Of a stretch of DNA of 64,000 nucleotides, positions 9,195-64,000 are shown in pieces. The position numbers were made by a program, and so were the translations under genes. The stretch covers positions 4,265 through 68,264 of the forward strand of contig JBLIMK010000007.1 in assembly GCA_047638715.1 (NCBI GenBank), read 5' to 3'. Every line of letters starts with the position of its first letter. Within the stretch, counting starts at the first letter, position 1. Under the pieces are notes generated by a model that was not told the DNA's origin, searched no databases, and was given only the letters and a program-made list of their open reading frames with translations. This stretch comes from Verrucomicrobiales bacterium (GTDB lineage: Bacteria; Actinomycetota; Acidimicrobiia; Acidimicrobiales; SHLQ01).

Positions 9195-10174
9195 CTCAGC
9201 AGGCCCATGTTTCGTTTCGCCCGAGCCAACACTTCCGAGGCGATCGCTTCGGCCTTGTCGGCACCGATTCGAAGCAAACGCTCGGTCTCGGCGGGGTCGG
9301 CCTGAAGCTCAGCGAAACGTGTCTGGATCGGGCGAAGGAGTTCGATCACAGCCTCGGCGGTGTCACCTTTCAGGGGACCGTATTGGGTGTACTGCTCGGC
9401 GAGTTCGGTAGATGGTGTGCCTGTGCATGCCGACAGAATGTCGAGCAAATTCGATACCCCGGGTTTTTGGTCGATGTCGTAGCGAACGTCGCCATCGCTG
9501 TCGGTGACGGCACGTTTGAACTTCTTCTCGATCTTCTTCGGATCTTCGAGAACGAGCACCGTGCCAGGGCTCTCCCCTTCCGACTTCGACATCTTGCGTT
9601 CGGGATGCTGCAGATCCATGATCCGAGCTCCCGCAGGCGGGATCCTGTGCTCCGGGACAACGAAGGTGTCGCCGAATCGGGAGTTGAAACGCTCGGCGAT
9701 GTCTCGGGTGATCTCGATGTGTTGGCGCTGGTCGTCACCGACCGGAACAACATCGGTGTCGTAGAGAAGGATGTCGGCAGCTTGCAAGGCCGGGTAGGTA
9801 AAGAGCGCGGCGGAAACGAATTTGGTCGAGTCGCGGTTCGACTTGTCCTTGAACGCGGTCATTCGACTCAGCTCGCCGAAGCTCACGGTGCACTCCATCA
9901 ACCAAGCAAGTTGGGGATGTTGTGGGACTTGGCTTTGCACGAAGAGGATCGAACGTTCCGGATCGATGCCCACGGCCATCAAGAGTTGTGCCAATTCGAT
10001 TGTGTTCTTGCGCAGCACATCGGGCGGCTGCGGGAGAGTGAGGGCGTGGAGGTCGACGACGCAGTAGACCGCATCATGGTCATCCTGGAGTTTCGACCAA
10101 TTGATCAACGCTCCGAGCAAGTTGCCGAGGTGAAGTTCACCTGAAGGTTGGATGCCGCTGAACACTCGTTTCAT
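9191..10174 (-). CDS. trpS: tryptophan--tRNA ligase
   Basis: 327 aa. Class I signatures GIQPSGELHLGNLLGA (HIGH region) and KMSKS. The overall layout is typical of TrpRS. Confidence 0.95.
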   Translation of the reverse strand: MKRVFSGIQPSGELHLGNLLGALINWSKLQDDHDAVYCVVDLHALTLPQPPDVLRKNTIELAQLLMAVGIDPERSILFVQSQVPQHPQLAWLMECTVSFGELSRMTAFKDKSNRDSTKFVSAALFTYPALQAADILLYDTDVVPVGDDQRQHIEITRDIAERFNSRFGDTFVVPEHRIPPAGARIMDLQHPERKMSKSEGESPGTVLVLEDPKKIEKKFKRAVTDSDGDVRYDIDQKPGVSNLLDILSACTGTPSTELAEQYTQYGPLKGDTAEAVIELLRPIQTRFAELQADPAETERLLRIGADKAEAIASEVLARAKRNMGLLS

Positions 10175-10192
10175 GGGAGACGAGGCTAGCGG

Positions 10193-11608
10193 TCAGCAGA
10201 GATCCTCGATCGCCTCACGCGCCGCCGTCCGGCTGACGTGCACATCGCGCCAGGACTCATCGTCTGGGCGGGTGCAGATGTGATTGCGCAATCGGACGTA
10301 CCGATCGTTTGGCATCGGACGAAGAATCTCGATGTTCTCGACAATGGTTGGGGTGGCATCTTCGGACAACCAGATCAGCGGCATGATCGCAATCCACTCG
10401 TCCTCACCGGTTGGGGGATTTGCGAAGTTGTGTTCGGCGATTCTTCGATCGGGGTTGAGCGCCCCCATCGCAAAGACAAAAACTATCCAACTCGAGACCA
10501 GCGCGACAGTGAACCAGGCGTCGCTTCCTCGAACTCCCGCAACCCTCAATGCGGCCAGCCCGAGCACGATCAGCAGCCAGAGGCCGAATCCGAATGACCA
10601 AAAGCGAAGTGGGCTGAGAAAGGTCTCGTCCACATAGGCGAGTATCCGAAGCAGGGCGAGACCGTCGATCACGGCGGCGAGTGCGATGGTCAGCAACCCG
10701 AGCCGACGAAGGCGCGTGTCGAGGTTCGGGGAACCAGAGATCTGGCGGATGACGAGAACGAGCACCACCGTGAGCGCGGCTACCCACAACAACTGAAAGA
10801 ACCCCGAGCGCACTTCGGAGCGGAGGGCCGCGTTGGACAGGTCGCGTCCAATCGTCGTGAGTCGCAGAGTAATGAACAATCCAAACAACCCGGCGACAGC
10901 AGATAACACGACCGACGACTCGAGCGAGCCGAAACGTCGACCGTGGCCAGCTGGCGCGCAGGGGCGGCCAATGACCGCGAAACGCGCCACGCCGATCGCC
11001 ACCGGCAGTATGAGGATAAGGAGCGCCGCACGGGCGAACGGGAAGATGAAGGGGTCCACAATGTCTGCGAACACCTCGTCGGCCGAGGCCAGAAGGGCCC
11101 AGAAAACGGCCACGATCGGCGCTGCAATGATGACCCCCCGGATGAGGGCGACGATGGTTTGTTCGGATCCGACGCGAGCGGGGGCCCGGTCGATCACACG
11201 ACGTTCGCTGCGTCTAAAGATTGCACCAACCGACAGGTTGGTGAGCGATTGTTCGGTTCCTGCAGCGAACGCCGAGACAGCAAGGACGAGCAAGGTGGTG
11301 CAGGCGATCGAGATCGTCAACCAGCTGTTGTCGCGAAAGACGAGCCACGGCACCAAAAACGCCGAGAACGCACTCCAGCGCGCGATCGAGGAACGCGGCG
11401 AAATCGCCCACCACACCCCCAGAATGCTGCCGCCGAATGCAATAGCGAGGCCGAGGCCGGTCCGGGTCGATACGGCAACAGCGAACACGAGCGACACGGC
11501 CAAGCCCGCCTGGTGAGCACGGGTGAAACAGCGGCGAGCGACCGCGACATCACGTGAACCGGCGCGCAGATCGACGTCGGCGGTGTCTTGGGCCTCCGGT
11601 GATGTCAT
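10193..11608 (-). CDS. polytopic membrane protein, DUF4153/DUF4173-like (paralog 1)
   Basis: Many predicted TM helices. Conserved SGFFQLLWVAALTVVLV block and a C-terminal soluble tail, both shared with the upstream paralog. Start moved to MTSPEAQD (11608), 1 nt after the upstream gene's TGA. Confidence 0.6.
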   Translation of the reverse strand: MTSPEAQDTADVDLRAGSRDVAVARRCFTRAHQAGLAVSLVFAVAVSTRTGLGLAIAFGGSILGVWWAISPRSSIARWSAFSAFLVPWLVFRDNSWLTISIACTTLLVLAVSAFAAGTEQSLTNLSVGAIFRRSERRVIDRAPARVGSEQTIVALIRGVIIAAPIVAVFWALLASADEVFADIVDPFIFPFARAALLILILPVAIGVARFAVIGRPCAPAGHGRRFGSLESSVVLSAVAGLFGLFITLRLTTIGRDLSNAALRSEVRSGFFQLLWVAALTVVLVLVIRQISGSPNLDTRLRRLGLLTIALAAVIDGLALLRILAYVDETFLSPLRFWSFGFGLWLLIVLGLAALRVAGVRGSDAWFTVALVSSWIVFVFAMGALNPDRRIAEHNFANPPTGEDEWIAIMPLIWLSEDATPTIVENIEILRPMPNDRYVRLRNHICTRPDDESWRDVHVSRTAAREAIEDLC

Positions 11609-11609
11609 G

Positions 11610-13145
11610 TCAGTCCCGGCCTCGAATGTTGCCACCCGCCTCGCGTTCGGTACAGAGGGTGTCGAGAGCTCTATCGGCACCAACTCGCCCGGCGTTGTAC
11701 TCGAATAGCCCGAACGAGGTCTCTCGGTCGGGTCGCAAGCACAACTGGTCCAGCAGCTCGGTGCCAGCGACGTCGGGGAGGTTTGGTTCCGAACGGATGA
11801 GCTCTTCAACCGCATCATCGCTAAGCGACTGCAATGTCTCGACGTCGACCGTGGTCGTTGCTCGGGAGATGTTGTAGGACGCCACTTGCGCGTCGGGGTT
11901 CACCACGTTCAGGCCAAATACGAACAAAGCGGACAGCACGATTGCGGTGCCAGGGAACCAGCTGCGATCCGCCTGCCAACCCGCGACCGAGAGCGCGTAG
12001 GTGGCGATCAAGACCGCAACGCCCCCAGCACCGGCGATCGCCCAGAACCGAAGTGGTGTGAGGCCGAACGAGCCGACGTAGAGGAGCAAGCGCTGCAAAC
12101 TGATGCCCGCGATGACCACCGTCAAAAGCAAGGTGACTAGGGCGAGTGGCGTGAAGCGATCTCGCCCCTTTTCGGGGTTGGTGATACGTACAGCTCGCAG
12201 GCCGCCGACCAACGAGACCGCCAACCCAGCAACCCACAGCAGTTGGAAAAAGCCGCTTCGGGCATGCTCTGCCGACGTTAATCCTTCGGTGCGCAGCACA
12301 TGGTCAGCGCCTCCGAAGGCGACGACGAGCTGCGTGATGACGAAAGCCGAGAAGAGCGCCGCGAGGCTTCCCAGAATGATCGTGACTTCGAGCGAGCCGA
12401 GCATCCGAATATTCAGCGACTTCTGCGCTGGCGGTGTCTCGTGTGCGGCGCGACTCACGAATCCGAAGAGCACGATCGCAACGAGCAACGTCACGATGAT
12501 GTGACCCACGAGGGTCGGAAGGTTTCCGAGTAAAAGGAACTTGGCGAAGACGTCATCGGCCGATGCCAACAGCGTGGTGAAGACGATAAGCACCGGGATC
12601 GCCACCGCAATTCCTCGGAGGAACGGTGCGAGCTTTCTGTCGGTCGTGAGGGCCGTGGCGAAACGACGCAGTAGGCCAAGGCCGTACAACCACTCGAACG
12701 TTGGAGCCCACACATCCATGACGACGTCCCGGACACGAACGTCGAGCGGCGAACCTCGAAGCGATATACCCGCGGCAACGCCGAGAAGAATGAGGACCGT
12801 GACGACGTTCGCCAACGTGAGCGGGGTATCCGCGCGGATAGCGAGCCATGGCGCCACAGCCGATGCGAGCGCCAAGAATAGAAGCGGCTCACGGCGTCGA
12901 ACTCGGCTACTCCAGATAAGCGTCACGACCAGGACGATCACAAGAAGCGCGCTCGATGCAGAGGCGACCGCGCCGGTTCGAAGGATCAGGTTGCCGAGGA
13001 ATCCAGCGATGATCGCGCCAACGATCTCAGGGGTCCGTACGTCGGGTGAATCGCCGCGTTTCGGGAGAACCTGACCTGCCTGGGGTGGTGGGACTTGTTC
13101 TTCTTCGGGCATACCGCTTCGCTCTCCCTCAGGCCTACTGTTCAC
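11610..13145 (-). CDS. polytopic membrane protein, DUF4153/DUF4173-like (paralog 2)
   Basis: 511 aa. Same architecture, with an SGFFQLLWVAGLAVSLV block, in tandem with the downstream paralog. Confidence 0.6.
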   Translation of the reverse strand: MNSRPEGERSGMPEEEQVPPPQAGQVLPKRGDSPDVRTPEIVGAIIAGFLGNLILRTGAVASASSALLVIVLVVTLIWSSRVRRREPLLFLALASAVAPWLAIRADTPLTLANVVTVLILLGVAAGISLRGSPLDVRVRDVVMDVWAPTFEWLYGLGLLRRFATALTTDRKLAPFLRGIAVAIPVLIVFTTLLASADDVFAKFLLLGNLPTLVGHIIVTLLVAIVLFGFVSRAAHETPPAQKSLNIRMLGSLEVTIILGSLAALFSAFVITQLVVAFGGADHVLRTEGLTSAEHARSGFFQLLWVAGLAVSLVGGLRAVRITNPEKGRDRFTPLALVTLLLTVVIAGISLQRLLLYVGSFGLTPLRFWAIAGAGGVAVLIATYALSVAGWQADRSWFPGTAIVLSALFVFGLNVVNPDAQVASYNISRATTTVDVETLQSLSDDAVEELIRSEPNLPDVAGTELLDQLCLRPDRETSFGLFEYNAGRVGADRALDTLCTEREAGGNIRGRD

Positions 13146-13234
13146 GATCTATCGCGAACAGTAGGCAAGGGGATTGAAAATGTCCCGTAAAGAAGTAGTT
13201 GCAATCGTATGACGCAGAGAATGCGTCGATCCAA

Positions 13235-14647
13235 TCAGCTGCGACCCCGGTATTGCGTCGATCCGCCATGCATGTTTTTGTTCAGCCGCTTGGCGAGGTG
13301 CAATCCTTCGAGAACGAGCTCGATAGCCGAAGCCGTGACCGCAGGATGCGGTTCGATGGAGTCGCCCTCGAGTAGTGCGTCGACCGCCGGCTGCAGCGCA
13401 GGAACTTGTGCGAGGAGCTCGACGTAGACGCTCGGGTCGACATCGGAGCCAACGTCGACCGTGACCCCTTCCTCGAAGGCCTCAACGATTGGGCCGTGCA
13501 GCGTTGGATCGACCGTGTCGATAAACGTGGTGTGCACCGCTGAGCGGATCAACGCATCGATCACGCGGCCTTCGCCACCCTCCTCGAAGGCTTCCACCTC
13601 GATCTTTCCCGACGTCGTCGCAGCAATCGCCGACAGGTCTCCGATTCGAGGGACCGCGACGTCGTGACCCGCCAAAAGGCTCCGACGAATCGAGTTCGCG
13701 ATGATCGCCTCGTAGTTCGCAACACTCAACCGGACCGACACGCCAGAACGCTGGGAGATCTGACTTGAGTCGCGCGCCTGCTGGGAGATCTCCGACACGA
13801 TCTCGAGCATGAACTCTGGCACACGAACATCGACAACATCTGCCGGTGGAAGCACGGCTTCTTGCAGCACGATCGTCATCTCTGTCTCGACGTCGAGCGG
13901 GTAGTGCGTTCGAATTTGTGACCCGAAGCGGTCCTTCAGCGGCGTGATGATTCGGCCGCGGTTGGTGTAGTCCTCCGGGTTGGCCGACGCGAAGAGCACG
14001 ACGTCGAGCGGCAGCCGAACCTTGTACCCACGAATCTGTACGTCCCGTTCCTCAAGAACATTGAGCAGTCCGACCTGAATGCGCTCCGACAGATCGGGCA
14101 ACTCGTTGATTGCGAAGATCCCGCGATTCGTGCGAGGTACCAGGCCGTAATGAAGGGTGAGCTCATCGCTGAGATAACGGCCCTCTGCGACCTTGATCGG
14201 GTCGACCTCGCCAATGAGGTCAGCGATCGAGGTGTCCGGGGTCGCCAGTTTCTCGCCATATCGCTGATCGCGATGCACCCAATCGATAGGCGTGTCATCG
14301 CCCTGTTCGGCGACGAGTGCCCGTGCATAGGCCGAGACAGCGTTGAAGGGGTCGTCGTTGATCTCAGACCCCTCGATGATCGGCATCCACTCGTCGAGAA
14401 GTGCTGTCAGGCCGCGAATCATTCGCGTCTTCGCCTGTCCACGCTCGCCGAGGAAGATCACGTCGTGACCAGCGAGCAAAGCGTTCTCGAGCTGTGGCAT
14501 CACCGTGTCCTCGTAGCCAAGGACTTCTGCGACGAGAGGGTCGCCGTTTCGGATGCGAGCGATCGCGTTCCGGCGCAGTTCTTCGGCCACCGGCACGGAC
14601 GCCCAGCCGGTCTTGACGAGTTCACCGAGGGTCGTTGGTCTGCTCAT
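13235..14647 (-). CDS. AAA+ ATPase of the Mg-chelatase subunit I-like / sigma54-interaction type (Rv0958-like)
   Basis: 470 aa. Walker A FLGERGQAKT, Walker B region GIFAINELPDL, then VQIRGYKVRLPLDVVLFASANPEDY. This family normally pairs with a VWA protein. Confidence 0.85.
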   Translation of the reverse strand: MSRPTTLGELVKTGWASVPVAEELRRNAIARIRNGDPLVAEVLGYEDTVMPQLENALLAGHDVIFLGERGQAKTRMIRGLTALLDEWMPIIEGSEINDDPFNAVSAYARALVAEQGDDTPIDWVHRDQRYGEKLATPDTSIADLIGEVDPIKVAEGRYLSDELTLHYGLVPRTNRGIFAINELPDLSERIQVGLLNVLEERDVQIRGYKVRLPLDVVLFASANPEDYTNRGRIITPLKDRFGSQIRTHYPLDVETEMTIVLQEAVLPPADVVDVRVPEFMLEIVSEISQQARDSSQISQRSGVSVRLSVANYEAIIANSIRRSLLAGHDVAVPRIGDLSAIAATTSGKIEVEAFEEGGEGRVIDALIRSAVHTTFIDTVDPTLHGPIVEAFEEGVTVDVGSDVDPSVYVELLAQVPALQPAVDALLEGDSIEPHPAVTASAIELVLEGLHLAKRLNKNMHGGSTQYRGRS

Positions 14648-14801
14648 TACCCGTGCTTACCACAGGACCTCAACAACTCAGCTGCGGAGTAGGGCACCGC
14701 GCGTCTCGACATCGAAGAGGCATCGGATGCTAAACATCTTCTGAGAAATATATGGGTCGCCAATCAGCGCGACCCACCCCACGAATAGGACGGGAACAGC
14801 A

Positions 14802-17316: not shown

Positions 17317-18429
17317 ATGAATCGCATCACCCTGAGTCCGCGCATTCGGATGACCCCGTTCCACAACTCGACAATCGCCGCCGGGCTGTCCGACATCAGC
17401 GTCTACAACAAGATGGTTTTGCCAACGTCGTACGGCGACCTGAAAGCCGAATACGACCGCCTGATCAACGGCGTTGCGATCTGGGATGTTTCGGTCGAGC
17501 GCCAAGTCCAGATCAGTGGCCCCGATGCCGACGTGTGCGCGCAATATTTCACGACAAGAGACATCACAAACATGGTCGAAGGTCAGGGCAAGTACGTGGC
17601 GATGTGCGATCACGCTGGTCACATCTTGAACGATCCGGTGCTGATGAAGCTGAGCGGTAGCCGTTACTGGTTCTCCATTGCGGACAACGACATGTTGCTC
17701 TTCTGTAAGGGTGTTGCAGCCGAGCGCGGCTGGGACGTCCAGGTCACCGAGCCCGATGTGTCGCCGCTTGCTGTGCAAGGCCCCAAGGCCGAGGACCTGA
17801 TCGCCGAACTATTCGGCGAGCACGTTCGCTCCCTCAAGTACTTCTGGTTCACCGAGACCGAACTCGACGGCATACCGCTCGTTCTGTGCCGCTCGGGGTG
17901 GAGCAAGCAGGGTGGCTTCGAGCTCTTCCTCCAAGACGGCAGTCGCGGCGACGAGCTGTGGGCGAAGGTCGTAGCAGCAGGCGAGAAGTACGACATTGGT
18001 CCGGGCGCTCCGAACCATATCGAGCGCGTCGAGAGTGGCCTGCTGTCGTGGGGAGGCGATAACACGCCCGACTCCAATCCATTCGAGGTAGGCATGGGTC
18101 GTTATGTCGACACCGATACCGATGTTGAATACATCGGCAAAGCAGCGTTGCAAGCGGTCGTCGCCAATGGTGGGCCAGAACGCCTCTTCGTCGGCGTGAA
18201 CATCGACACGCCGCTCACCGAAGCCTGGCCCCTCCCGGAACGGACACCGATAATGCTCGATGGCGAGCAGGTCGGAACACTCAGCGCAATCATCCACAGC
18301 CATCGTCTCGACCGGACGATCGGCTTGGCCCAGATCTCACGTACCGTCGTCGAGGCAGGCCATGGCGTCGAGGTCCAAACACCGGACGGCCCGAGAAGCG
18401 CCACGGTTCAGAAGCTCCCGTTCTTGTAG
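17317..18429 (+). CDS. GcvT-family aminomethyltransferase, DmdA-like subgroup (candidate DMSP demethylase)
   Basis: 370 aa. SPRIRMTPFH, VYNKMVLPTSY, AIWDVSVERQVQISGPDA, PDVSPLAVQGPKAEDL and RSGWSKQGGFELF follow the folate-dependent GcvT fold. From memory they resemble the DmdA clade more than canonical GcvT. Confidence 0.7.
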   Translation: MNRITLSPRIRMTPFHNSTIAAGLSDISVYNKMVLPTSYGDLKAEYDRLINGVAIWDVSVERQVQISGPDADVCAQYFTTRDITNMVEGQGKYVAMCDHAGHILNDPVLMKLSGSRYWFSIADNDMLLFCKGVAAERGWDVQVTEPDVSPLAVQGPKAEDLIAELFGEHVRSLKYFWFTETELDGIPLVLCRSGWSKQGGFELFLQDGSRGDELWAKVVAAGEKYDIGPGAPNHIERVESGLLSWGGDNTPDSNPFEVGMGRYVDTDTDVEYIGKAALQAVVANGGPERLFVGVNIDTPLTEAWPLPERTPIMLDGEQVGTLSAIIHSHRLDRTIGLAQISRTVVEAGHGVEVQTPDGPRSATVQKLPFL

Positions 18430-58079: not shown

Positions 58080-58937
58080 TCAGGGGTGAGCTCGCTCAGC
58101 GGCTGCCACGGTGTTTGCGAGCAGCATCGCAACGGTGAGCGGGCCAACGCCACCAAGACGAGGCGTGATCCACGATGCGACCTCTCCAACATCCTCGTTG
58201 ACATCGGGCAGCAGCTTCTTGCCCTCCCAGCTAATCCCGCCACTAACGACAACAGCGCCCGGCTTCACCATGTCCTTGGTGATCGTGCCCGGACGACCAA
58301 CCGCTGCAATAACGATGTCGGCCTGGAGCGTGTACTTCGAAATGTCGGGGACACCGGTGTGCACGACGGTCGTCGCCGCATTTGCGCCGGCCTGTTTCGT
58401 GGTCATCAGCAGCGCCATGGGTCGGCCGAGGGTTGTGCCGCGACCTACGACGACCACGTTCTTTCCCGCGACGTCGACGTCGTAATACTTCAGCATCTCG
58501 ATGATTCCAGCAGGCGTGCATGGCAACGGCCCAGGCTGTTGCAGAACGAGCTTGCCGAGGTTTTCCGGATGGAGCCCATCTGCGTCTTTCGCCGGATCGA
58601 TCATCGCGAGCGCTTCGGCGGCGTCGAATCCATCGGGCAGAGGTAATTGCAGGATGTAGCCGTGGACCGAAGGGTCGTTATTGAATTCGTTGAGCGCATC
58701 TACCAGCGCTTGTTGTCCGCCGTCTGCGGGGATCGCCTTGTGATGCGACGTCAGGCCAACCTGCACGCACGTCTCGTGCTTCTTCTTCACATACGAGGCC
58801 GACGGGCCGTCGTCGCCGACGAGAATCGTGCCCAAGCCGACCTGCACCCCTTTCGCAGCGAGCGCAGCAGCGCGGGTCTGGACATCTTCGAGAACTGACT
58901 CGGCCACGGGGCCACCGGCAAGGAATTGTGCGCTCAT
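58080..58937 (-). CDS. folD: bifunctional 5,10-methylene-THF dehydrogenase / 5,10-methenyl-THF cyclohydrolase
   Basis: 285 aa. SASYVKKKHETCVQVG, PCTPAGIIEML, VVVVGRGTTLGRPMALLM and GGVGPLTVAML. Confidence 0.95.
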   Translation of the reverse strand: MSAQFLAGGPVAESVLEDVQTRAAALAAKGVQVGLGTILVGDDGPSASYVKKKHETCVQVGLTSHHKAIPADGGQQALVDALNEFNNDPSVHGYILQLPLPDGFDAAEALAMIDPAKDADGLHPENLGKLVLQQPGPLPCTPAGIIEMLKYYDVDVAGKNVVVVGRGTTLGRPMALLMTTKQAGANAATTVVHTGVPDISKYTLQADIVIAAVGRPGTITKDMVKPGAVVVSGGISWEGKKLLPDVNEDVGEVASWITPRLGGVGPLTVAMLLANTVAAAERAHP

Positions 58938-59347: not shown

Positions 59348-59991
59348 ACCGACAACACATTCTCCTAAAAACCCTCCCCGTCGCTGTTGTGACTGCGTTC
59401 GTCGCAACGCGCCTCGGGCGCGGGCGGGCAGGGACCGAGACATTCCTTTGCGAGGGCTCACGATGCTCGTTTGACTCGGGAGCGACCTGGCTGCTGACCG
59501 GCGTGACGATCATCGGCCCGTTCATTGCGGTCCTCGGGTTCTCCTTCGCCCGTCGGCTCCACTACCGCGATCGGCTCGGGCCTTTCAGCCACCGCGCAAT
59601 ACCCGACGGCGAACAGATCCTCGAGGTCTTGGGCATCGTTGCATCGGGCGCACTCGCTTACTGGGTGTTGCGCAACGGACCGACGATCGAGGCCATCGAC
59701 GACGGCGGCCTCAATCGCGTCGCCGCCGACATCTTGGGCGAGGACGACGTACCGAGCAGTCTCGTACCCAATCGACAGAGCTGGTTTGCAATCGGGGCGA
59801 TCCTCAGCGCACCTTTCGCGTTCAGCCTCGGGTCAATGTTCGGCCGCGAATGGTATGGGCGCAAGCGTCGAAAGACGCAAGAGCAACTCGCTGCGACGGA
59901 GGTGATCGTCAACGACGATCAGCTACTCGAGTTGGACTATGCCGATGAAGTCATCAGCCTCATCGATGAACGCGAGGATGAGGGTGAATGA
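59344..59991 (+). CDS. hypothetical membrane protein
   Basis: 215 aa, about four hydrophobic segments and an acidic C-terminal tail. No family recognised. Confidence 0.45.
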   Translation: MNRQHILLKTLPVAVVTAFVATRLGRGRAGTETFLCEGSRCSFDSGATWLLTGVTIIGPFIAVLGFSFARRLHYRDRLGPFSHRAIPDGEQILEVLGIVASGALAYWVLRNGPTIEAIDDGGLNRVAADILGEDDVPSSLVPNRQSWFAIGAILSAPFAFSLGSMFGREWYGRKRRKTQEQLAATEVIVNDDQLLELDYADEVISLIDEREDEGE

Positions 59992-60649
59992 AGATCGGTC
60001 ATCGTTAGGACGAACTCGGTATGGTGACCTGGTGGAAGAATCAAACGACAACGCTGAGTCGACTCCAACTCATGCAACGCAGGAGGTGGGACGAGCCGTC
60101 GGCGCACGCGTTCGGGAGCTTCGGACCGACCTGGGCATGACGATGGCGATCTTCGCCGAAGCGGCCGACATCTCCCTCGGCATGTTGTCAAAGATCGAAC
60201 ATGCCCAGACTGCGCCAAGCTTGAACACCCTCGTCGGGCTCGCAAACGCTGCGGGCGTACCCGTGACCGCGCTCTTCCGTGGGCTCGATGAAGAACACGA
60301 CATCGTGATCACCCGCTCGGGCGAGGGTCAAGAGATCATCCACGAAGGCAGTAGCCCAACCCGGTTGTACTCCGGTCTTGGCTCACTTCGTGGGCCGCAT
60401 CGCATCATCGAACCCATGCTCACCGTGCTCACTGATGACAGCGAAGAATTTCCCTTGTTCCAACACGAAGGTGTCGAGTTCATCCACATCCTCGAGGGTT
60501 CGATGGAATATGGCTATGGCTCAAAGAGTTACAAGCTCTTCGTCGGCGACACCATGCAAATTCACGGCGAGGTCACCCATGGCCCGGTGGCGATTCTCGA
60601 GACATCGGTCCGATTCTTGAGTATCAAGGTCTACCCCGCCGCCGACTAG
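59978..60649 (+). CDS. XRE-family transcriptional regulator with C-terminal cupin domain
   Basis: HTH_3 region VGARVRELRTDLGMTMAIFAEAADISLGMLSKIEHAQTAPSLNTLVGLANAAGV, then a cupin fold (HEGVEFIHILEGSMEY...GDTMQIHGEVTHG). Start uncertain (ORF opens at 59939). Confidence 0.8.
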   Translation: MRVNEDRSSLGRTRYGDLVEESNDNAESTPTHATQEVGRAVGARVRELRTDLGMTMAIFAEAADISLGMLSKIEHAQTAPSLNTLVGLANAAGVPVTALFRGLDEEHDIVITRSGEGQEIIHEGSSPTRLYSGLGSLRGPHRIIEPMLTVLTDDSEEFPLFQHEGVEFIHILEGSMEYGYGSKSYKLFVGDTMQIHGEVTHGPVAILETSVRFLSIKVYPAAD

Positions 60650-60701
60650 TCGATCTCGAGAAACTAAATCGGAGACATTTTCACTGGAGCGGTAGGTACA
60701 T

Positions 60702-60711
60702 CTACTAGTAG
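60702..60711. promoter_or_regulatory. 10-bp perfect palindrome in the AT-richer region upstream of tdm (candidate operator)
   Basis: CTACTAGTAG lies about 36 bp upstream of the proposed tdm start. The surrounding 60650..60746 is visibly less GC-rich than the coding flanks. Confidence 0.3.
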
Positions 60712-60746
60712 TATCTCCTCTTGTTGCTAGACATCGTGAGGCCATA

Positions 60747-63122
60747 TTGAGTATCACCGTGCCCCCGGGTATTACCGTGCCGCGAGTGCGGCTCGCACAG
60801 TTCGCTCCCACCGAGCCTGGTCTCGAGCGATATCGCATCAACGGTGGAGCTGCCACCGTGATCTCACTCACCGCCGGCGACACGCTCGAGCTTCGCAACC
60901 TCGAGGGACGTCAACGAGCCGAGGTTCTCGCTTTCGATCCGGACGGACGTTCGAGCCCTGCACTCCTCGGCGCGTCCAATGATGGCCCGGCCATTGGCGC
61001 CGCATCGATTCTGACGCGCAACGTCATCGACGCCCGTCGAGTTCGCGCAGGGCTCCAAGCGGTCGGCATCGACCTCACGACCGCGAACAAGACCGACGCG
61101 TTCAACCCCGACTCCCCCGCAGGCGACGCGGTCACCTATAACGCCGAGTCCAACTGCACAGTCGCCATCGCCGCACCCGGCGAACCAATGAACCCTCACA
61201 GCTCGGACCCGACCACCGCACTCATCGCATTCGTCCGTCGAGCCAGCACACCGGAGGTGGGTGAGATCCATTTGCCCGTACCACTCGGCGACCTCGAACA
61301 AGACCTTTTCGTCGAACGGCGAACAGCGTTGGCCTTTGAAGTGAAAGCCGGGCAGTACATCCAGGTCATCGATATCGAAGGACGAGAGTGTTCGGACTTT
61401 CAAGCGTTCGACGCCCACGCGCTCGACGGATCGATCGAGCAATGTCTCGACGCGACCACGACTCGGAGCTTGATGGGAGCAGCGTTCCCCGGGCCCGGCC
61501 TCTATTCGAAGTTCTATGACTCCACGATGGCACCGCTCCTCGAGGTCGTCCAAGACACGGTTGGCCGCCACGACACGTTCAACCTCGCATGTACCTCAAA
61601 GTACTACGACGACATGGGTTACCCCGGCCACGTGAACTGCACCGACAACATCAACCGAGCAATGGACCCTTACGGCGTCGCTGCTCGCACCGGCTGGGAA
61701 GCGATCAACTTCTTCTACAACACCAACGTCGACGACGCGAATCAGATCTACCTCGACGAACCGTGGTCTCGCCCCGGCGACTACGTGATGATGAAAGCAC
61801 TCACCGACCTGGTGTGCGTCTCAACGGCATGTCCATGTGATGTCGATGCAGCCAATGGCTGGTCACCAACCGACATTGCAGTACGCGTCTATCCAGAAAC
61901 TCAACCCGTCACGAAAGCGATCGCCTTCAGAATGTCTGCCGATGCCGACCCCGAACTCACCCGCGAAACCGGGTTCCACCCACGTACCTCGGAGCTCACT
62001 CGCAACTACAGCGAGTACGAAGGCTTCTGGCTCGCCGATCACTACGGCAGCTCTGGCCATGGCGCAATCAAGGAGTATTGGGCTTGTCGAGAAAAGGCCG
62101 CAGCGATCGACCTCTCGCCCTTGCGCAAGTACGAGGTAACTGGACCTGACGCTGAGGAGCTTCTGCAAACGTGCCTGACCCGCAACGTTCGCAAGCTCGC
62201 CGACGGACAGGTGAGCTACAGCGCCATGTGTTACGACACCGGCGGCATGATCGACGACGGCACAATCTTCCGCCTCGGCCGAGAGAACTTCCGATGGATC
62301 GGCGGCAGCGATGCGAGTGGCCTCTGGCTCCGCCAGCAGGCCGAGGAGCGCGGATTGCGCGCGTGGGTGCGCAACAGCACGAACGAGCTCAGCAACCTGC
62401 AGGTCCAAGGCCCGCTAAGTCGCGACATCATGCGAGAGGTCATCTGGACCCCGCCCGGTCAGCCCACTATCGACGAGCTCGGCTGGTTCCGCCTAACGAT
62501 TGCTCGCATCGGCGGTGAACTCGGGATCCCGGTCGTCGTTTCACGCACTGGTTACACGGGGGAGCTTGGCTTCGAAGTCTTCTGCCACCCCACTCGCGGA
62601 GCCGAGGTATGGGATGCAATCTTCGACGTGGGCGGACCGCTAGGCCTGGTGCCGATGGGTCTCGAAGCGCTCGACATGTTGCGCATCGAGGCTGGCCTGA
62701 TCTTCGCTGGTTATGAATTCTCTGATCAGACCGATCCATTCGAAGCGGGCATCGGGTTCACCGTGCCACTCAAGTCGAAGGACGACGACTTCATTGGACG
62801 CGACGCGCTCCTTCGCCGTAAGGAAAGCCCCACCCGCAAACTCGTTGGACTCGAGCTTGTCGGCGGCGAGACCGGTGCGAATGACGACGGCGTTTTCATC
62901 GGGCGTCAACAGGTCGGCGAAATAACGAGCGGCACGATCTCGCCGCTCTTGAAGAAGAATATTGCGCTGTGCCGCATGGCTATCGAACACTCCGAGATCG
63001 GCACGACGGTCGAGGTGGGCAAACTCGACGGACATCAGAAGCGAATCCCGGCGACGGTGGTTCGATTCCCGTTCTACGATCCGGACAAGACCAAAGTTCG
63101 AGACGTACAGCCAGACAACTAA
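60747..63122 (+). CDS. tdm: trimethylamine-N-oxide demethylase-like protein (N-terminal DUF1989 domain fused to C-terminal GcvT/THF-binding domain)
   Basis: 791 aa, TTG start 6 nt after GAGG. The N-terminal half has DUF1989-type blocks (ALAFEVKAGQYIQVIDIEGRECSDFQAF, ACTSKYYDDMGYPGHVNCTDN, VSTACPCD). The C-terminal half has GcvT blocks (VTGPDAEELL, VSRTGYTGELGFEVF, LRIEAGL). This is the domain fusion described for Tdm. Confidence 0.75.
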   Translation: MSITVPPGITVPRVRLAQFAPTEPGLERYRINGGAATVISLTAGDTLELRNLEGRQRAEVLAFDPDGRSSPALLGASNDGPAIGAASILTRNVIDARRVRAGLQAVGIDLTTANKTDAFNPDSPAGDAVTYNAESNCTVAIAAPGEPMNPHSSDPTTALIAFVRRASTPEVGEIHLPVPLGDLEQDLFVERRTALAFEVKAGQYIQVIDIEGRECSDFQAFDAHALDGSIEQCLDATTTRSLMGAAFPGPGLYSKFYDSTMAPLLEVVQDTVGRHDTFNLACTSKYYDDMGYPGHVNCTDNINRAMDPYGVAARTGWEAINFFYNTNVDDANQIYLDEPWSRPGDYVMMKALTDLVCVSTACPCDVDAANGWSPTDIAVRVYPETQPVTKAIAFRMSADADPELTRETGFHPRTSELTRNYSEYEGFWLADHYGSSGHGAIKEYWACREKAAAIDLSPLRKYEVTGPDAEELLQTCLTRNVRKLADGQVSYSAMCYDTGGMIDDGTIFRLGRENFRWIGGSDASGLWLRQQAEERGLRAWVRNSTNELSNLQVQGPLSRDIMREVIWTPPGQPTIDELGWFRLTIARIGGELGIPVVVSRTGYTGELGFEVFCHPTRGAEVWDAIFDVGGPLGLVPMGLEALDMLRIEAGLIFAGYEFSDQTDPFEAGIGFTVPLKSKDDDFIGRDALLRRKESPTRKLVGLELVGGETGANDDGVFIGRQQVGEITSGTISPLLKKNIALCRMAIEHSEIGTTVEVGKLDGHQKRIPATVVRFPFYDPDKTKVRDVQPDN

Positions 63123-63161
63123 GTCCGCTATTGGGGACGACATAATCAGGGGGATGAGTAC

Positions 63162-64000
63162 ATGACACGAGTCGCGATCATCGGTGCAGGCCCGAGCGGG
63201 CTTGCGCAGCTACGCGCATTCGACAGTGCCGCGCAAAAGGGCGCCGACGTACCCGAGGTGGTCTGTTACGAGAAGCAGAGCGACTGGGGTGGCCTCTGGA
63301 ATTACTCGTGGCGAACCGGTCTCGACCAAAACGGTGAAGCGGTTCACGGAAGCATGTACCGCTACCTGTGGTCGAATGGTCCCAAGGAATGTCTCGAATT
63401 TGCCGATTACAGCTTCGAAGAACATTTCGACAAGCCGATTGGGTCGTTCCCGCCCCGCGCAGTCCTGTGGGACTACATCAAAGGCCGCGTCGAGAAGACG
63501 AACGTCCGAGACCACATCCAGTTCAACACGTCGGTCCACAACGTTTCGTTCAACGCTGATGAGAACAACTTCACGGTCACAATCCACGACCACGAAACCG
63601 ACGATACCTCGTCATCGGAATTCGACCATGTCGTCGTGGCTAGCGGACATTTCTCCACGCCCAACATGCCTCACTACCCTGGATTCGAGAAGTTCCCAGG
63701 GCGGATTCTGCACGCACACGACTTCCGAGACGCGGTCGAGTTCAAGGGCAAAGACGTACTGATTATGGGCGCGAGCTACTCCGCCGAGGACATTGGGTCG
63801 CAGTGTTGGAAATACGGCGCCAAGTCGATCACGTGTACAGCGCGCAGCGGTCCAATGGGTTTCGACTGGCCCAACAACTGGGACGAAAGGCCGATCCTCG
63901 ATCGTGTCGAAGGCAGCACGGTGCACTTCACGGACGGAACGTCCAAGGACTTCGATGCAATCATCTGCTGCACGGGATACAAACACCATTTCCCGTTCAT
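63162..64000 (+). CDS. tmm: flavin-containing monooxygenase, trimethylamine monooxygenase-like; 3'-partial (runs off window)
   Basis: Own translation: [85 protein letters not shown]... It has the FAD motif GAGPSG, the FMO motif [11 protein letters not shown] (FxGxxxHxxxF) and the NADPH motif GASYSAED. An AGGGGGA Shine-Dalgarno lies upstream. Not in the ORF track because the ORF is open-ended. Confidence 0.85.

Follow-up and report, generated by a model that had tools for sequence, protein, structure and literature searches.

Does an actinobacterial genome hold the route by which trimethylamine and trimethylamine N-oxide (TMAO) are oxidised, how would such a route be controlled, and where would the dimethylamine that it releases go? 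These questions arise at one end of a 64,000-nucleotide stretch of DNA (the window, corresponding to G000:C7:4265-68264; its contig ends 848 bp further on), in which a gene for an XRE-type helix-turn-helix (HTH) regulator with a cupin domain is followed by tdm, predicted to encode a TMAO demethylase, and by the first part of tmm, predicted to encode a trimethylamine monooxygenase. The host is a metagenome-assembled genome (MAG) of Acidimicrobiales, 3.64 Mb in size and 93% complete. Methylated amines are a major marine pool of nitrogen and carbon and precursors of climate-active aerosols, and what is known of how they are oxidised comes almost wholly from Alpha- and Gammaproteobacteria.

We consider it quite probable that an accessory methylated-amine island of marine Acidimicrobiales begins in positions 59939-64000, with a tdm-tmm operon and its XRE-cupin regulator. 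The enzymes themselves are known; the departures from the known system are its lineage, its location on an island, a different regulator family together with a candidate DNA target, and a non-canonical set of partner genes.

The demethylase and the monooxygenase

The 791-amino-acid product of tdm carries a DUF1989 domain (residues 189-356) followed by GCV_T (411-671) and GCV_T_C (697-778) domains, according to Pfam. It scores 1180.6 bits against NF053776, the NCBIfam equivalog profile of TMAO demethylase (cut-off 1100), over profile positions 10-762 of 763, and it aligns over residues 13-785 with the Paracoccus enzyme as solved by cryo-EM (PDB 9Q59; E 1.3e-269), at an identity of about 57% as read off the alignment. 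The residues of the zinc, substrate and tetrahydrofolate (THF) sites of the Paracoccus enzyme have been defined in the structure paper (PMC13619132). The counterparts here of its zinc cysteines C285, C301 and C365 are C282, C298 and C362; that of its substrate residue D220 is D217; and those of R480, F582, F672 and K782 in its THF site are R479, F581, F671 and K781. All of these positions are invariant across an alignment of 74 homologues, and the three-domain architecture of the Paracoccus demethylase (9Q59, 9Q5L, 9Q5A) is likewise retained.

Unlike the Paracoccus enzyme, the protein has Tyr in place of F327 (Y324) and Cys in place of D367 (C364) in the pocket, as well as Thr in place of W476, a domain-interface residue for which this is a common natural variant. 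The two pocket differences, and a chemical mechanism of Tdm that is not yet settled (PMC13619132), could mean that this DUF1989-GcvT fusion has some other substrate than TMAO. We judge this very unlikely: the score lies above the equivalog cut-off, the zinc cysteines, D217 and all the named THF residues are invariant, and the gene adjoins tmm. Moreover, the Tyr and Cys variants are found in 17/46 and 23/46 sequences, respectively, outside the Acidimicrobiales clade and are common in proteobacterial Tdm too, and in the Paracoccus enzyme the D367A mutant loses only about 10% of its activity, the F327A mutant far more (PMC13619132). With homology this strong, the 791-residue protein is regarded as a genuine TMAO demethylase.

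Its closest matches come from Acidimicrobiales MAGs (74-79% identity), followed by gammaproteobacterial (about 61-65%) and alphaproteobacterial (about 60%) proteins. In a maximum-likelihood tree, midpoint-rooted and with the characterised Tdm compared through the PDB alignment, outside the tree, the Acidimicrobiales sequences form a single clade of 28 rows (SH-aLRT 99) adjoining a gammaproteobacterial one. Two sequences from bins labelled Acidimicrobiia (L050 and L070) fall inside Proteobacteria, and their gene order is also of proteobacterial type; these contigs may be mis-binned, or may represent separate transfers.

The second enzyme is equally well placed. The complete tmm gene encodes 446 residues (L001:1501-2841), its stop codon lying at C7:68766, 502 bp past the window. 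The full-length product scores 781.9 bits against the equivalog profile of Tmm, NF058570 (cut-off 675), and the fragment inside the window gives 534 bits by itself. It matches the Pfam family FMO-like (flavin-containing monooxygenase, FMO) and carries the GAGPSG motif of the FAD site (GxGxxG, residues 8-13), the FMO motif FxGxxxHxxxF/Y and GASYSA (GxSxxA) of the NADPH site. Its alignment covers the full length of the Methylophaga FMO structures 8B2D and 2XVE (E 1e-205 to 1e-212) and of the FMO of PDB 5IPY (E 2e-202), and it matches 6KBW, deposited as ‘Trimethylamine monooxygenase’, at E 6e-169. On these matches the FMO-like protein is identified as Tmm. Tmm-type enzymes are not new to Actinomycetota as a whole, because Corynebacterium glutamicum, included as a control genome, has a match above the NF058570 cut-off. 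Indeed, Tdm and Tmm are ordinary members of their families, and the NCBI pipeline would name both automatically.

The two genes are separated by 39 bp, with a strong Shine-Dalgarno sequence (AGGGGGA) 8 nt ahead of the tmm ATG and no terminator-like site on the + strand between them. About 12 Acidimicrobiales loci show the same order, tdm then tmm, in tblastn synteny, the two genes being separated by about 35-235 bp. Because of this short spacer, the ribosome-binding site, the missing terminator and the recurring order, tdm and tmm would constitute one operon.

These results bear out the initial annotation, which had been made from the letters of the sequence: the regulator, the 791-residue frame, the open frame beyond it and folD all lie where it had placed them, the naming of Tdm and Tmm stands, and the profile searches it had proposed (DUF1989, GCV_T, FMO-like) matched in all three cases. 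At least some marine Acidimicrobiales do, then, carry a fully canonical Tmm and Tdm, and should be counted in tmm/tdm surveys. We found no description of tmm/tdm in Acidimicrobiia in the searchable literature; one sponge study assigned FMO transcripts to Actinobacteria, and tdm to Alphaproteobacteria only. The route had been called under-described, which is right as far as this literature goes and too strong for the genomes, since about 28 Acidimicrobiales species in public MAG collections carry tdm, in addition to the Tmm-type match in Corynebacterium.

An accessory island at a conserved site

Within its lineage the pair is rare. Tdm is present in 1/25 other species of the genus, in 2/41 other genomes of the family and in 5/400 sampled genomes of the class, and Tmm in 1/41 of the other family genomes. 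The sequences ahead of the regulator gene, by comparison, are shared: a flank of two ABC exporters, folD and a 215-residue membrane protein is common to four genomes of the same genus, at 63-89% protein identity. In the tdm-less congeners G426 and G445, folD is followed by the 215-residue protein (about 50% identity) and then directly by a gene for a 741-residue protein; in G439, also tdm-less, the 741-residue gene comes directly after folD. In the genome studied here this 741-residue flank gene lies at the start of another contig, C142. Hence the same flanks enclose no island in three of these genomes.

The tdm-positive congener G427 (L003/L095), the closest relative, has, at the same site and between the same kinds of flanks, a contiguous island of about 22 kb. 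It starts with the XRE-cupin gene, a DAO-family flavoprotein, tdm, tmm, three unrelated genes, a member of family c16, an Amt-type channel and a member of family c21; it continues with a SoxB-like flavoprotein, the small protein c14, and then mgsC-, mgsB-, mgsA- and glutamine synthetase (GS)-like genes. The gene order across loci was set by tblastn. On this comparison the genomes differ by an insertion or deletion of island type that begins with the XRE-cupin gene, and the island is accessory.

Here, tmm is followed by a zinc-ribbon/membrane open reading frame (ORF) that runs off contig C7, and contig C96 holds what would be the remainder of the island: GS-like, MgsA-, MgsB- and MgsC-like genes, c14, a LysE-type exporter, c21, Amt and c16. 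The initial annotation had asked whether dmmDABC, gmaS or a transporter comes after tmm. The contig ends too soon to tell, and the relatives continue with the Amt-type channel and a GS-like/Mgs-like set that, as discussed below, is not the canonical one.

As a separate observation on the assembly, the first 127 bp of C96 and of contig C164 are the same and stop right at the start codon of a formate-THF ligase gene; the C-terminal end of this gene is found at the start of C4 (C4:1-120). This fork in the assembly graph could reflect two copies of fhs, or a polymorphism in which part of the population is without the island.

The position of folD deserves a comment. Its product would process the methylene-THF formed by Tdm, and its closeness to tdm might suggest functional clustering. 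We rejected this for the present genome: the proximity is positional, because this is the only folD match in the genome and the ABC-folD arrangement stands at the same place, with 88-89% identity, in the tdm-less congeners G439 and G445. Elsewhere, folD does lie beside related clusters, in L110-L112 and in the gammaproteobacterial loci L040, L042 and L050.

The flanks also bear on the origin of the contig. That it is a proteobacterial fragment put in the wrong bin is scarcely credible, even though Tdm and Tmm reach 61-65% and about 70% identity to proteobacterial proteins and proteobacterial-type tdm loci do occur in ‘Acidimicrobiia’ bins, L050 and L070. The exporter-folD-membrane protein flank recurs in congeners, the island of G427 occupies the same site, and the G+C content, 61% in the window, is even along the contig (0.59-0.62). 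Because of the flank synteny with four genomes of its own genus, the contig is assigned to Acidimicrobiales and mis-binning is refuted in practice; the relatives of Tdm agree with the actinobacterial origin first proposed for it.

The XRE-cupin regulator and its candidate DNA target

The known regulators of the pathway in Ruegeria are the AraC-type TmaR and the GntR-type TmoR (PMC13390433). The local regulator, for which the initial annotation had rightly given an XRE-HTH/cupin composition, belongs to neither family, the genome as a whole not having been searched for TmaR. Pfam places HTH_3 at residues 58-110 and Cupin_2 at 169-229 of the longest, 236-residue ORF. The family comprises more than 1200 metagenomic homologues, mostly named from Acidimicrobiales MAGs, and its closest solved full-length relative is 1Y9Q, a structural-genomics entry of unknown function (E 5e-7). 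Since the homologues are typically 203-215 residues long and their alignments begin near residue 32-45, the true start is probably the GTG at 60032 (205 residues) or the ATG at 59966 or 59978, giving a protein shorter than 236 residues.

In Escherichia coli, PuuR is an XRE-HTH and cupin repressor of the gamma-glutamyl-putrescine pathway. The regulator shares with it the two-domain architecture, and both stand by a pathway that starts, or would start, with a GS-like gamma-glutamyl-amine ligase. PuuR is also its best NCBIfam match (NF007408); the score of 37.9 bits, for a cut-off of 211, shows that the two are not orthologues.

What ties the family to amine metabolism is the company it keeps. 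In about 24 Acidimicrobiales loci (tblastn) the XRE-cupin gene either adjoins tdm or belongs to the same island, and among proteobacterial tdm loci it was seen once only, in L075, as a partial match of 37% identity; a GntR gene adjoins tdm in gammaproteobacterial loci only. Furthermore, paralogues of 57-63% identity stand beside canonical GmaS/Mgs-like clusters in tdm-less congeners, and a 61%-identical member is found beside a GS-like/Mgs-like/c14/folD cluster in abundant marine contigs. Altogether, the family looks like a regulator of gamma-glutamyl-type amine catabolism, unstudied so far for this pathway.

It comes, in addition, with a well-defined candidate for its DNA target. The 97-bp spacer between the regulator gene and tdm (60650-60746) has a G+C content of 44%, below the 0.1st percentile of 97-bp windows, which agrees with the AT-richer promoter region noted at the outset. 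Within it lies a conserved 23-mer, ATTTTCACTGGAGCGGTAGGTAC, with the core TTTCAC. Searched with a weight matrix, it occurs once per locus, always intergenic and upstream of tdm, in 14 related Acidimicrobiales loci. In the whole genome it is the sole site of at least 17 bits. Where a GS-like gene and tdm are divergent, the 23-mer points toward the GS-like gene; and in the tdm-less marine contigs L110-L112, which carry the same XRE-cupin family as the 23-mer-bearing tdm loci, a site of 26 bits precedes the GS-like gene by about 100 nt. A hexamer TAnnnT follows it after 8-9 nt in 14/15 aligned instances, L004 being unclear. The block may therefore combine a promoter and an operator that serve both tdm and the GS-like operon, and its most likely binder would be the XRE-cupin protein.

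The GS-like gene of this genome has a weaker copy (12.8 bits), which lies inside a pair of TTTCAC/GTGAAA palindromes 44 bp from each other. The number expected in the whole genome is about 0.6; apart from this pair there is one more (C13:8261), which was rejected as a regulator site, being parS. This perfect parS site, TGTTTCACGTGAAACA, is found between rsmG and parA/parB, and its half-site is common to the palindromes upstream of the GS-like gene of the island.

Other elements of the spacer did not stand. The palindrome CTACTAGTAG, to which the initial annotation had drawn attention, is indeed there, 3 bp downstream of the 23-mer; as an operator it was rejected. It is not conserved, a similar one being found in L005 only (CTACCTGTAG), and it is not significant by itself because a 10-bp perfect palindrome arises in about 9% of shuffles of the spacer; the window holds 96 of them. 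The conserved element is the 23-mer instead. A sigma-54 reading of the CTGGCA-N-GGTA block, which resembles a -24 element, was dropped as the -12 TTGC is missing; to our knowledge, Actinobacteria lack RpoN. A GlnR-box reading of TTCAC...GGTAC was dropped too, the spacing being a misfit.

The XRE-cupin protein is, in our reading, most likely the local regulator of tdm-tmm. A different arrangement has to be taken seriously, if not expected: the protein might control another gene of the island, such as the GS-like/Mgs-like set or the DAO flavoprotein, and the 23-mer might be bound by a nitrogen regulator or a dedicated sigma factor. In L003, L004, L006, L007 and L009 another gene does lie between the XRE gene and tdm, 1.3-2.8 kb apart; XRE-cupin paralogues accompany GS-like clusters without tdm; the 23-mer of the window is without clear dyad symmetry; and a LysR regulator is also encoded on C96. 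In favour of the control of tdm-tmm, no regulator gene but the XRE-cupin one recurs across the island arrangements, it ends 97 bp ahead of tdm with the 23-mer inside that spacer, and the motif and the family co-occur in three gene arrangements.

Several observations weigh against our overall interpretation and are best considered together. A sigma-70 consensus scan found no promoter, and the -10 element was assigned by eye. Neither the loci in which tdm comes directly after c16-amt-c21 nor those of the paralogues by canonical gmaS have the 23-mer, so it is not a universal operator of the family, and what links it to the regulator is their co-occurrence. As for the island, no contig-end overlap joins C7 to C96 or C142, so that their connection in this genome is drawn from the relatives. 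The two pocket substitutions of Tdm described above belong here as well, as does the search for the dimethylamine monooxygenase subunit DmmA given below, which had no positive control.

Features of the locus (positions in the window)
Feature	Position	Strand	Remarks
folD	58080..58937	-	Pfam THF_DHG_CYH and THF_DHG_CYH_C; conserved flank, outside the island
Membrane protein, 215 aa	59344..59991	+	No family match; final conserved flank gene ahead of the island
XRE-HTH/cupin regulator gene, first of the island	59939..60649	+	Longest ORF 236 aa; Pfam HTH_3 and Cupin_2
Conserved 23-mer ATTTTCACTGGAGCGGTAGGTAC, candidate operator / promoter upstream element	60677..60699	+	
Palindrome CTACTAGTAG	60702..60711	strand-less	Overlaps the -10-like hexamer
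TAGTAT, -10-like hexamer (TAnnnT)	60709..60714	+	Putative; offset conserved among relatives
tdm, TMAO demethylase	60747..63122	+	791 aa; TTG start, GAGG before it; NF053776 equivalog
Shine-Dalgarno of tmm, AGGGGGA	63147..63153	+	Within the 39-bp tdm-tmm spacer; read from the sequence
tmm, trimethylamine monooxygenase	63162..64000	+	First 279 of 446 codons inside the window; NF058570 equivalog

Partner genes and the fate of dimethylamine

The enzymes of the locus suggest the following sequence of steps. Tmm, a flavin monooxygenase using FAD and NADPH, would oxidise trimethylamine to TMAO; Tdm would bind TMAO at its three-cysteine zinc site and split it into dimethylamine and formaldehyde, the latter being passed to tetrahydrofolate in the GcvT domain to give 5,10-methylene-THF. 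The housekeeping FolD and the formate-THF ligase would oxidise this to formate. Both C96 and C4 start with a fragment of fhs, the one on C96 being divergent from the GS-like gene; PurU was not found. The XRE-cupin protein would bind at or next to the 23-mer with its TTTCAC core, overlapping the tdm promoter, while its cupin domain might sense a small amine-derived ligand, as PuuR does.

The next step is less plain. DmmA (PF11927) was not found in this genome or in 10 other tdm-bearing genomes, in a search that gave no match in any genome and thus had no positive control. The other GcvT-family genes of the genome (a glycine-cleavage T protein, a DmdA-like protein, two DMGDH-like fusions and a SoxA-like protein) lie in no Dmm-type cluster. 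The genome may thus be without the known enzyme for dimethylamine, as SAR11 is; the absence of dmmDABC from carriers of tmm/tdm has been described as the ‘DMA bottleneck’ of SAR11 and marine Gammaproteobacteria (PMC5520151).

For monomethylamine the genome has further genes. A GS-like gene on contig C3 (C3:1196-2512) scores 576.8 bits against TIGR03105, above the cut-off of 469.6, and 398 and 382 bits against the solved GmaS structures 7CQL and 9QUR; it has Mgs-like partners on C3 and C25. On these scores C3/C25 hold the canonical GmaS-MgsABC set, which would act on monomethylamine together with a SoxBDAG-type enzyme on C100. The latter, a SoxB/D/A/G-type cluster at C100:2705-7762, is a candidate N-methylglutamate dehydrogenase or sarcosine oxidase, its SoxA-like subunit scoring 849.6 bits against a cut-off of 1164.

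The GS-like gene of the island (C96:346-1737) is of another kind. It scores 310.6 bits against TIGR03105, below the cut-off, and 184 and 213 bits against 7CQL and 9QUR, the level that it also reaches against ordinary GlnA (about 203 bits); by these comparisons it is not a canonical gmaS. Its distribution follows that of Tdm: this copy is present in all 3 Tdm-positive genomes of the family and 0/39 others, and in 5/5 Tdm-positive and 1/395 Tdm-negative sampled genomes of the class. The co-occurring genomes span five families, and related genomes among them are not independent. Because of its non-GmaS scores and near-perfect co-occurrence, the island set is best described as a paralogous system of its own, uncharacterised and passed on along with Tdm, which may act on monomethylamine or on dimethylamine. 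A plasmid collection searched for a reference GmaS gave, as best match, an alkylamine/P450 cluster that is unrelated. In genomes where no known dimethylamine monooxygenase was found, the GS-like/Mgs-like set offers a concrete candidate for the disposal of dimethylamine.

The same evidence bears on what the Tmm-Tdm pair is for. It might serve mainly to oxidise dimethyl sulphide (DMS) to dimethyl sulphoxide (DMSO), or to provide TMAO as an osmolyte or piezolyte, as reported for Myroides profundi. Marine surveys cite Tmm as an oxidase of DMS (PMC13280387), a Bacteroidetes bacterium has a pathway in which TMAO accumulates through Tmm (PMC7997507), and a DmdA-like gene is encoded on the same contig as tmm. 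Such a purpose seems unlikely to us, given that tmm shares an operon with tdm, which consumes TMAO, that the islands of relatives also hold an Amt-type channel and amine-assimilation genes, and that Tdm co-occurs tightly with the GS-like set. Catabolism of amines by the tdm-tmm island remains the reading that we prefer.

Compared with Ruegeria pomeroyi DSS-3 and Methylocella silvestris, where the pathway consists of Tmm, Tdm, DmmDABC and GmaS-MgsABC-MgdABCD with the regulators TmaR and TmoR, the Acidimicrobiales genome has the same first two enzymes, with the zinc and THF sites of Tdm kept, handles its C1 units via THF (FolD, Fhs), and has GmaS/MgsABC and a SoxBDAG-type enzyme elsewhere in the genome. 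The differences are several. The phylum is Actinomycetota; tdm stands ahead of tmm in one putative operon; the local regulator is an XRE-cupin protein rather than TmaR or TmoR; an Amt-type channel is found in the island and no TmoXWV importer at the locus; DmmA was not detected, with the limit on that search given above; and the island GS-like/Mgs-like genes are a separate paralogous set with an extra 139-residue protein. At the level of gene content, a further parallel is with SAR11 (Candidatus Pelagibacter ubique), which has tmm, tdm and methylamine-assimilation genes and no dmmDABC (PMC5520151); lineage and regulator differ.

A bolder and rather doubtful extension can be put forward. Acidimicrobiales that degrade trimethylamine would possess a self-contained, horizontally mobile island, in which the XRE-cupin protein and its TTTCAC site replace TmaR/TmoR and the GS-like/MgsABC-like/c14 set, together with the SoxB-like enzyme, processes dimethylamine. 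If true, the island set would fill the step of the ‘DMA bottleneck’ in organisms without DmmDABC.

Some further observations concern genes of the island and its surroundings. The c14 protein (L082:4963-5379, with homologues in L003-L081) has 139 residues and no Pfam or NCBIfam match; in the tdm-linked set its gene always comes after that of the MgsC-like protein, whether the host belongs to Actinomycetota, to Gamma- or Alphaproteobacteria or to Gemmatimonadota. Three DAO-family flavoproteins recur in the tdm islands of relatives: L003:8706-9959 (c17), L011:14774-16117 (c12) and the SoxB-like L083:7588-8940. In this genome the SoxB-like one is on contig C11, and c17 and c12 are without a clear orthologue, the best matches having 31% and 43% identity.

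On C96 (L082), by Amt and c16, positions 9328-14751 encode a class-V aminotransferase of glyoxylate type, a LysR regulator, a CitE/malyl-CoA-lyase-like protein and the subunits of a malate-CoA ligase, of which the beta subunit passes its equivalog cut-off (635.6 bits against 604). This group looks like a partial serine-cycle or glyoxylate module. Finally, a stand-alone GcvT-family protein of 370 residues is encoded at 17317-18429 (+ strand) of the window; it scores 395.4 bits against the DmdA equivalog, below the cut-off of 410, and demethylation of dimethylsulphoniopropionate may therefore also be encoded on contig C7.

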